The position numbers and the translations under genes were made by a program. From Shigella phage vb_GEC_SH_GT: 64,000 nt of DNA. Location: sequence record OR887633; one strand, 5' to 3'. Within the stretch, counting starts at the first letter, position 1. Each line of letters opens with the position of its first letter. Under the pieces are notes generated by a model. It saw only the letters and a list, made by a program, of their open reading frames with translations. It was not told where the DNA came from and did not search any database. Positions 62,066-62,820 of this stretch are shown here, piece by piece.

Positions 62066-62142
62066 CTGGTCGAGGCAGTAGGGATCGAACCTACGACCCA
62101 GGACTTAGAAGGTCCTTGCTCTTCCTTCTGAGCTATGCCTCG
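62066..62142 (-). tRNA. tRNA-Arg (anticodon UCU)
   Basis: Hand-folded cloverleaf; T-arm GGUUCGAUCC; anticodon loop CUUCUAA; CCA encoded. Confidence 0.85.
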
Positions 62143-62146
62143 TATT

Positions 62147-62221
62147 TGGCGGACGTGATAGGATTCGAACCTATAACCAATCGCTTAACAGGCGATCGCT
62201 CTGCCATTGAGCTACACATCC
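62147..62221 (-). tRNA. tRNA-Asn (anticodon GUU)
   Basis: Hand-folded; acceptor GGAUGUG/CACGUCC; anticodon loop CUGUUAA; CCA encoded. Confidence 0.75.
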
Positions 62222-62225
62222 AAAT

Positions 62226-62312
62226 TGGTGGGGAGTGATGGAGTCGAACCACCCGAGTCGCAATGACAATGGATTTACAGTCCACACCGCTACCTCTACG
62301 GGATAACTCCCC
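62226..62312 (-). tRNA. tRNA-Tyr (anticodon GUA), long variable arm
   Basis: Hand-folded; anticodon loop CUGUAAA; 14-nt variable arm; CCA encoded. Confidence 0.7.
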
Positions 62313-62321
62313 AAATTAATT

Positions 62322-62396
62322 TGGTGGCCCTGGGTGGAATTGAACCACCATCTGGCGATTATGAGTCGCTTGCTTGAACCTTCCAGCTACAGGGCC
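62322..62396 (-). tRNA. tRNA with CAU anticodon (Met or lysidine-modified Ile)
   Basis: Hand-folded; anticodon loop CUCAUAA; CCA encoded; corresponds positionally to T4 tRNA-Ile. Confidence 0.75.
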
Positions 62397-62397
62397 T

Positions 62398-62473
62398 TGG
62401 TGCTGATTGACGGAATCGAACCGCCGACGTCCTCATTACAAGTGAGGTGCTCTACCTACTGAGCTAAATCAGC
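62398..62473 (-). tRNA. tRNA-Thr (anticodon UGU)
   Basis: Hand-folded; anticodon loop CUUGUAA; CCA encoded. Confidence 0.85.
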
Positions 62474-62478
62474 AAAAC

Positions 62479-62568
62479 TGGCGGAGGCGATAGGATTTGA
62501 ACCTATGAGTCGCCGGAGCGACTGCCGATTTTCAAGACCGGTGCATTAAACCACTCTGCCACGCCTCC
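62479..62568 (-). tRNA. tRNA-Ser (anticodon UGA), long variable arm
   Basis: Hand-folded; anticodon loop CUUGAAA; 18-nt variable arm; CCA encoded. Confidence 0.8.
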
Positions 62569-62570
62569 AG

Positions 62571-62644
62571 TCTCCGCGGCAGGATTTGAACCTGCGACAT
62601 TCTGCTCCCAAAGCAGACGCTCTACCAAACTGAGCTACACGGAG
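62571..62644 (-). tRNA. tRNA-Pro (anticodon UGG), CCA not encoded
   Basis: Hand-folded; anticodon loop UUUGGGA; ends at discriminator. Confidence 0.8.
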
Positions 62645-62654
62645 TAAATTAAAT

Positions 62655-62728
62655 TGGAGCGGATAATGAGAATCGAACTCACATCATCAGATTGGAAGTC
62701 TGAGGTAATGCCATTATACGATATCCGC
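62655..62728 (-). tRNA. tRNA-Gly (anticodon UCC)
   Basis: Hand-folded; anticodon loop CUUCCAA; CCA encoded. Confidence 0.85.
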
Positions 62729-62733
62729 AAATT

Positions 62734-62820
62734 TGGTGCGAGAAGTGGGACTCGAACCCACAAGGAAATCATTCCGCAGCATTTTAAGTGCTGTGCCTTT
62801 ACCAATTTGACCATTCTCGC
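62734..62820 (-). tRNA. tRNA-Leu (anticodon UAA), long variable arm
   Basis: Hand-folded; anticodon loop CUUAAAA; CCA encoded. Confidence 0.8.

Follow-up and report, generated by a model that had tools for sequence, protein, structure and literature searches.

Why should a T4-like phage carry an array of transfer RNA (tRNA) genes with tRNA-Tyr and tRNA-Asn in place and tRNA-Gln missing, when T4 itself has the reverse? The question is raised by a 64,000-nt stretch of the genome of Shigella phage vb_GEC_SH_GT (OR887633), hereafter the window, which comes from a Tequatrovirus (T4-like coliphage): its last 25 kb are ~96% identical to teqhad and slur03 and ~95% identical to wV7. We consider it very probable that the array is the tRNA operon of T4-like coliphages in the form seen in T2 and VEc74, lying at its standard site, co-transcribed and supplying tRNAs for over-used codons, and that its differences from T4 stem from homing-endonuclease traffic.

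A first-pass annotation, made by reading the letters alone, had described nine minus-strand tRNAs beginning at position 62066. When ARAGORN was run on the whole window, its entire yield was nine contiguous minus-strand genes at 62067-62820, and ARAGORN and Rfam agree with the order and the anticodons first proposed, the start differing by one position. In transcription order these are:

62734..62820, minus strand: tRNA-Leu(UAA); ARAGORN; RF00005 59.3 bits; CCA encoded; 87/87 identical to T4 and T2
62655..62728, minus strand: tRNA-Gly(UCC); ARAGORN; RF00005 63.3 bits; CCA encoded; 73/74 identical to T4
62570..62644, minus strand: tRNA-Pro(UGG); ARAGORN; RF00005 70.2 bits; no encoded CCA
62479..62568, minus strand: tRNA-Ser(UGA), class II; ARAGORN and RF00005; CCA encoded (TAA at the same point in T4)
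62398..62473, minus strand: tRNA-Thr(UGU); ARAGORN; RF00005 73.5 bits; CCA encoded; 75/76 identical to T4
62322..62396, minus strand: CAU-anticodon tRNA, most likely tRNA-Ile2; ARAGORN; RF00005 59.9 bits; CCA encoded; T2-type allele
62226..62312, minus strand: tRNA-Tyr(GUA), class II, its D arm non-canonical; ARAGORN; RF00005 30.2 bits; CCA encoded
62147..62221, minus strand: tRNA-Asn(GUU); ARAGORN; RF00005 74.1 bits; CCA encoded; 75/75 identical to T2
62067..62142, minus strand: tRNA-Arg(UCU), T2-type allele; ARAGORN; RF00005 65.8 bits; CCA encoded; 76/76 identical to T2, 51/76 to T4 and T6

All nine reach the RF00005 gathering score of 29 bits, eight of them at 59-74 bits and tRNA-Tyr at 30.2, so that the covariance-model check of the Asn and Tyr folds (74.1 and 30.2 bits) returned the anticodons that had been claimed. 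The gene sequences likewise bear out the remark that tRNA-Pro alone lacks an encoded CCA: the other eight genes carry it, and the Pro gene ends in ...GCGGAGA, followed by CT and then by the first base of Ser. The corresponding variation in the Ser gene, with CCAG in T2L and its absence in T4, has been described previously (PMC2330249).

Far from being new, the array is a form of a classic phage tRNA operon that has been sequenced before. With the nine tRNAs and the HNH gene upstream of them as the query, a single colinear piece is recovered in VEc74 (99.0%), phiD1 (97.9%), EC.W14-2, ES12, ES26 and JoYop; the GenBank record of VEc74 has these nine tRNAs annotated in identical order, and every tRNA of the window is identical or nearly so to some known phage allele. 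The order Leu(UAA), Gly(UCC), Pro(UGG), Ser(UGA), Thr(UGU), CAU, Arg(UCU) is the shared T-even core, which is kept here, and in Kha5h and Shfl2 the full ten genes Gln-Leu-Gly-Pro-Ser-Thr-CAU-Tyr-Asn-Arg are found. The query aligns in two pieces in Ozark, teqhad, slur03/08/14, ACG-C40 and others. In Ozark an extra tRNA-His(GUG) lies between Asn and Arg (3473-3548 of the Ozark locus piece), and the same insertion would fit the two pieces in which teqhad, the slur phages and ACG-C40 match.

The first-pass annotation had credited T4 with eight genes, and this was right: the T4 map reads Gln-Leu-Gly-Pro-Ser-Thr-Ile-[segB]-Arg-rnaD-rnaC. Set against that map, the ARAGORN calls also bear out that Tyr and Asn sit between the Ile equivalent and Arg and that no Gln is present in the window. 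However, the label "remodelled", which it attached to the array, points in the wrong direction. Matches to the Tyr-Asn segment occur in 648 phage records, with a coverage of at least 80% in 395 (including T2, RB5 and Shfl2), so that the pair is widespread in Tequatrovirus, and Brok-Volchanskaya et al. reported in 2008 that the tRNA regions of T2L, RB1 and RB3 have no segB and contain tRNA-Met, Tyr, Asn and Arg (PMC2330249). In T4 it is segB that occupies the position of the window's Tyr and Asn, and in the alignment of T6 segB replaces Asn only. The T4 arrangement therefore looks like the derived and exceptional one, judging from prevalence and the known behavior of SegB. The preferred 27-bp recognition site of the SegB endonuclease lies inside the tRNA-Asn gene, and in T4 x T2L crosses its homing supplants ~1250 bp, with tRNA-Met, Tyr, Asn and Arg among them (PMC2330249). 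The Ile(CAU) and Arg alleles of T4, which T6 shares, agree with those of the window at only 47-51 of ~75 positions, as expected if segB carried its flanks along. As the window's tRNA-Asn is identical at 75/75 positions to that of T2 (LC348380), and the site was mapped in the Asn gene of T2L (PMC2330249), it probably carries the preferred SegB site and the phage should be a recipient of SegB homing; during co-infection with T4-like carriers of segB, this region would be expected to be overwritten.

Exchange of another kind is evident within the cluster. The tRNA-Pro gene, whose minimum-energy fold is a cloverleaf (z = -3.4), is identical to that of VEc74 at 75/75 positions and to that of Shfl2 at 73/75, whereas only 63/75 positions agree with T4, T2 and Ozark. 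There are thus two tRNA-Pro alleles among close relatives, one in the window, VEc74 and Shfl2 and the other in T4, T2, Ozark and Kha5h; their differences, at 12/75 positions, arise from compensatory changes that fall in the anticodon, T and acceptor stems. Their distribution implies mosaic exchange inside the cluster.

The missing tRNA-Gln can be traced to a replacement at its normal place, for which the elements upstream of the array are needed:

63546..63833, minus strand: trna.2 homologue, the upstream flanking gene; 94/95 amino acids identical to T4 Trna.2
63449..63545, minus strand: conserved leader between trna.2 and the cluster; the same sequence precedes tRNA-Gln in T4
63440..63448, minus strand: 5' remnant of tRNA-Gln (TGGGAATTA); matches the first 9 nt of T4 tRNA-Gln exactly
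62827..63435, minus strand: predicted free-standing HNH endonuclease gene, 202 amino acids plus stop; open reading frame (ORF) list and PHROG match; in the place of tRNA-Gln

From 63556 down to 63440, a stretch of 117 nt with a single mismatch, homology to T4 takes in the end of trna.2, the leader and the first 9 nt of tRNA-Gln. It breaks after this remnant and resumes at 62823, 3 nt before tRNA-Leu. These breakpoints come from an anchored comparison, a MAFFT alignment having misplaced the leader of the window relative to T4. A window-specific segment of 616 bp (62824-63439) accordingly stands where T4 has 62 bp of tRNA-Gln gene body. The ORF within it matches phrog_14736 "HNH endonuclease" with E = 5e-124 as well as nine further HNH-named PHROG families, and displays the motif CAIC...DHIDGNNKNH...CPNCH, conforming to the pattern CxxC...DH...N...CxxCH. 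The cassette is found at full length in 63 phage records and an intact Gln-Leu junction in 448. When a gene is present in some close relatives and absent from others at one site, and its breakpoints are sharp, this typifies a homing endonuclease, and we predict that the ORF is a free-standing gene of this type. As the HNH cassette physically replaced the gene, we see no sign of any kind that the loss of Gln was a selected change of the tRNA repertoire.

It might be objected that tRNA-Gln has merely moved: the window reaches no further than 1180 bp upstream of the array, the remaining genome lies outside our view, and the absence of a tRNA-Gln gene from the ARAGORN results holds for the 64 kb of the window. 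Yet at its usual locus the gene was destroyed and survives as no more than the 9-nt remnant. VEc74, where the arrangement is the same, has tRNA locus tags from t001 to t009 and no further, every one of them in this cluster; those of Ozark (gt001-gt010) include no Gln either. Given the VEc74 tags in particular, we regard a copy elsewhere in the genome as very unlikely indeed, and the remnant together with the tag numbering of both phages rules out an edge effect as the main cause of the missing Gln.

A further ORF is embedded in the T2 cluster. In T2 (LC348380) a frame of 133 amino acids lies inside the former tRNA-Thr (2020-2421 of the T2 locus piece) and belongs to phrog_16521, a family of unknown function. 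Between this family and the C-terminal half of the window's HNH protein (residues 76-188) there is a weak match, a hint that a DNA-binding domain is shared or that an endonuclease gene has decayed. Pfam gave no match for the ORFs lying within the clusters of T2 and Ozark, and PHROGs returned only families of unknown function.

The tRNA-Tyr gene requires closer scrutiny, since it could be taken for a decaying pseudogene, which would leave a functional set of eight. Its 30.2 bits barely exceed the cut-off, its minimum-energy fold is not a cloverleaf (z = -0.9), the VEc74 record marks its copy as a pseudogene, and ARAGORN misses the homologues in CR8 and PG7. The gene is identical at 87/87 positions to those of Shfl2 and Kha5h, at 86/87 to that of T2 and at 85/87 to that of T6, and the family is common to unrelated phages, namely T5, rV5-like phages, Karamvirus PG7, Jiaodavirus KpV477 and Certrevirus CR8, and to ~110-kb plasmids of Escherichia coli (in our locus pieces it lies at 300-387 in T5, 303-389 in rV5 and 1204-1290 in the E. 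coli plasmid). We segmented the stems of eight homologues manually, including those of T6, rV5, T5, KpV477, CR8, PG7 and the E. coli plasmid. The acceptor stem is separated from the D stem by 4 nt (5 in CR8 and PG7) instead of 2, and the D stem itself has 3 bp and a 9-10-nt loop; this unusual D arm accounts for the low covariance scores, the "pseudo" flags and the copies that ARAGORN overlooked. All five stems nevertheless pair in every homologue, and compensatory substitutions affecting the acceptor, D, anticodon and variable stems preserve them across divergent phages: the D stem CCG/CGG becomes CUG/CAG in T5, the anticodon stem occurs in four variants that are each paired, the variable stem GUC/GAC becomes GCU/GGC in KpV477, and the acceptor stem of T5 is shifted yet paired. 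The record of T5 describes its homologue as an efficient amber suppressor once the anticodon is changed, and the tRNA-Tyr of T6 has been detected by Northern blot and rescues infection (PMC13096335). Because of the compensatory changes, the suppressor note and the Northern detection we treat the window's tRNA-Tyr as functional, and as the comparative analysis supports the fold, we do not hold the non-cloverleaf prediction against it; that it is a pseudogene appears extremely unlikely.

Beyond phages, a search of E. coli genomes with the Tyr-Asn segment gave its best matches in the ~110-kb plasmids (274/293 places) and not in chromosomal tyrT or asnT. One of these, pEC881_2 (NZ_CP019027), has an Asn-Tyr-Thr-Ser tRNA cluster at 1124-1950 of the locus piece, and the plasmids with this cluster may be phage-plasmids. 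We also came across 18 records labeled "Campylobacter phage" (for instance MG065672 and MG065647) with a tRNA-Tyr ~95% identical to the rV5-type and T-even gene; these genomes are rV5-like in size (137-141 kb), and their host labels look doubtful.

The gene with the CAU anticodon poses a different problem, as it could encode an elongator or initiator tRNA-Met or an AUA-reading tRNA-Ile2 of the lysidine type. ARAGORN and many GenBank records call it tRNA-Met, and it is identical to the experimentally characterized tRNA-Ile of T4 at just 47/75 positions (75/75 to T2). However, it occupies the position of tRNA-Ile in T4, the gene of Ozark that is identical to it carries the RefSeq name tRNA-Ile2-CAT, and a full-length match was found in 5336 of 5426 E. 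coli genomes, the best among the matches listed all being annotated as tRNA-Ile (81.6% over the full length). It also has the C4-G69 and C5-G68 pairs, of which the lysidine synthetase TilS is reported to make use. In the codon comparison described below AUA is the second most enriched codon (4.4-fold), against 0.99-fold for AUG. Most likely, then, the gene specifies a lysidine-type tRNA-Ile2, the "Met" labels being the usual default for a CAU anticodon, and a tRNA-Met identity is very unlikely.

What might the array do for the phage? The first-pass annotation had offered codon-usage adaptation as one possibility, and this idea is supported by codon counts. The phage genome is AT-rich (34% G+C). 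From the window, 108 ORFs called mechanically (18,327 codons) were compared with 42 annotated genes of E. coli K-12 (14,790 codons). Relative to E. coli, the phage ORFs are enriched in AGA (7.0x), AUA (4.4x), UCA (3.6x), AAU (3.2x), UUA (2.7x), GGA (2.7x), ACA (2.5x) and UAU (2.5x), and the six most enriched codons are all read by encoded tRNAs. Cognate codons outrank the others when all codons are ranked (Mann-Whitney p = 1.2e-4) and when only A/T-ending codons are (p = 4e-4); as the effect holds among A/T-ending codons alone, it reflects more than AT-richness. CAA (Gln) and CAU (His), each at 1.3x, are among the least enriched A/T-ending codons, which fits with Gln and His being members that vary between phages.

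Evasion of anticodon nucleases was the second possibility named at the outset. In a stronger form, Tyr and Asn (plus His in relatives) would be mainly an anti-defence module against nucleases that attack GUN-anticodon tRNAs or tRNA-Tyr, with codon supply secondary. Of the four GUN-anticodon (queuosine-family) tRNAs, the set cleaved by colicin E5, such a module would comprise three (Tyr, Asn and His), and this counts in its favor. The spread of the Tyr family through T5, rV5, Karamvirus, Jiaodavirus and the ~110-kb E. coli plasmids suggests selection on the gene itself, and the variable arm of the window's tRNA-Tyr is identical to that of T5 and differs from that of host tyrT (tyrT and asnT were taken from E. 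coli K-12). Chihara et al. (2026) found that over-expression or SegB-driven amplification of T6 tRNA-Tyr, 85/87 identical to that of the window, restores infection against the defence system Septu, from which T4, lacking tRNA-Tyr, cannot escape (PMC13096335); the tRNA-Tyr of T5 similarly neutralizes retron-Eco7 (PMC11555353).

This part of the evasion idea stands for Tyr, but its premise of an attack on the anticodon does not, as both Septu and retron-Eco7 cut tRNA-Tyr in its variable loop rather than in the anticodon (PMC13096335, PMC11555353), and for Asn we found no published case of a role in counter-defence. Moreover, in their anticodon loops the window's Tyr and Asn match E. coli tyrT and asnT exactly and so bear no sign of escape changes, an identity that argues for an effect of supply over nuclease-resistant tRNAs. 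Septu also cleaves the tRNA-Tyr of T6, and wild-type T6 is restricted until the gene is amplified (PMC13096335). Finally, since UAU and AAU are enriched in the phage ORFs (2.5-fold and 3.2-fold), supply already accounts for both genes. A mainly anti-defence module is hence a possible but unlikely explanation. More speculative still, and in our estimate improbable, is that the block beside Arg (Tyr and Asn, with His added in Ozark, teqhad and the slur phages) constitutes a putative mobile cassette of spare parts against GUN-tRNA nucleases, which HNH or segB genes would move or amplify, the HNH enzyme targeting the tRNA-Gln of rivals. The tRNA-Tyr that distinguishes this phage from T4 may, all the same, help it against Septu and retron-Eco7, by analogy with its homologues.

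Returning to the reading that we favor, a codon-supplying operon shaped by homing endonucleases, the cluster is situated as in the T4 map between trna.2 and rnaD/rnaC, on the strand of the neighboring genes, and the presumptive transcription unit is completed by the following downstream elements:

61946..62065, minus strand: homologue of rnaD (species 2, a T4 small stable RNA), by alignment to T4 rnaD; 62063-62065 extrapolated from T4 positions 1-3
61801..61939, minus strand: homologue of rnaC (species 1, a T4 small stable RNA); 136/139 identical to T4 rnaC
61717..61750, minus strand: terminator-like hairpin (61750-61727) and T run closing the unit; scan match with a 10-bp stem, 6 G-C; a consensus match only

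In the local alignment of rnaD, 62062-61946 of the window corresponds to positions 4-119 of the 119 in T4, with 102 identical bases, and the internal hairpin differs among T4, T2 and this phage. When 61600-62900 was searched permissively against Rfam, no family was assigned to the rnaD/rnaC region. Among the sub-threshold hits of this search, sX4 and YrlA are artefacts of antisense tRNA sequence, as are the sub-threshold "Plastid-ycf2 5UTR" matches on the plus strand of 62069-62820, which coincide exactly with the Leu, Thr, CAU and Arg genes read antisense.

As conservation with T4 suggests, the HNH gene, the nine tRNAs and rnaD/rnaC would be co-transcribed from the upstream leader, and host enzymes would cut the transcript into single tRNAs, of which only tRNA-Pro would need post-transcriptional addition of CCA. 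The products would then supplement the host pool for the over-used codons AGA, AUA, UCA, AAU, UUA, GGA, ACA and UAU, and tRNA-Tyr could in addition act as a spare when Septu or retron-Eco7 cleaves the host tRNA-Tyr, a role demonstrated for the nearly identical gene of T6. In evolutionary terms, the 616-bp HNH cassette has taken the place of 62 bp of tRNA-Gln in this lineage. In T4 and T6 a segB cassette would have displaced Asn, and in T4 Tyr as well, introducing Ile and Arg alleles of its own; in T2 an ORF lies inside Thr. From these sequence comparisons, the differences from T4 are probably the outcome of homing-endonuclease gene traffic rather than of a redesign of the tRNA set.

Several points weigh against this scheme. 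A consensus promoter scan returned 13 sites against 7.4 +/- 2.7 in shuffled sequence, none of them convincing in the leader, for which reason the placement of the cluster promoter within the conserved leader is inferred from T4. The codon comparison sets mechanically called ORFs, mostly of early and middle genes, against a small E. coli sample, and CCA (Pro) is enriched only 1.3-fold, so that supply explains the members of the array unequally. The Pfam HNH model (PF01844) scores the ORF at 17.3 bits, below its cut-off of 21.4 bits, and the ancestral order was read from prevalence and the behavior of SegB rather than from a phylogeny.

As the array was already known and sequenced, its discovery value is small; it serves instead to illustrate two established ideas, that phage tRNA sets match over-used codons and that free-standing homing endonucleases shape the tRNA content of T-even phages.

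Among the systems with which the array can be compared, T5 is the most distant, being a member of a different family (Demerecviridae) with a different tRNA set. Its tRNA-Tyr nonetheless belongs to the same family as that of the window, with the unusual D arm, an identical variable arm and ~85% identity overall, and its tRNA region likewise has HNH endonucleases (F-TflI, II, IV) among the tRNA genes; some GenBank records name the homologue of the window's HNH gene "F-TflIV", which is a record label only. T6 shares the same tRNA-Tyr (PMC13096335); it differs from the window in possessing Gln and segB, in its lack of Asn, Pro and Ser, and in having Ile and Arg alleles of the T4 type. T4 (NC_000866) has its cluster at the same locus and in the same orientation, with nearly identical Leu, Gly, Ser and Thr genes and a Pro gene that lacks CCA as in the window. 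It differs in the presence of Gln, in having segB instead of Tyr and Asn, in its Ile (47/75), Arg (51/76) and Pro (63/75) alleles, and in the absence of an encoded CCA from 4/8 genes (Gln, Pro, Ser and Ile) as opposed to 1/9. T2 (LC348380) resembles the window in having CAU-Tyr-Asn-Arg without segB and a Ser gene with encoded CCA, its CAU, Asn and Arg genes being 100% identical and its Tyr gene 86/87. However, its array, Gln-Leu-Gly-Pro-Ser-[ORF for Thr]-CAU-Tyr-Asn-Arg, retains Gln, is free of the HNH cassette and is followed by an ORF of 116 amino acids between Arg and rnaD. The closest counterparts are VEc74 (MT932213), Yersinia phage phiD1 (HE956711), ES12, ES26, JoYop and EC.W14-2, in which the trna.2 leader and the HNH gene precede Leu-Gly-Pro-Ser-Thr-CAU-Tyr-Asn-Arg exactly as they do here. 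The tRNAs of VEc74 differ from those of the window by a few point changes (Thr is identical at 72/76 positions), and an additional 516-nt ORF lies between its trna.2 and HNH genes.

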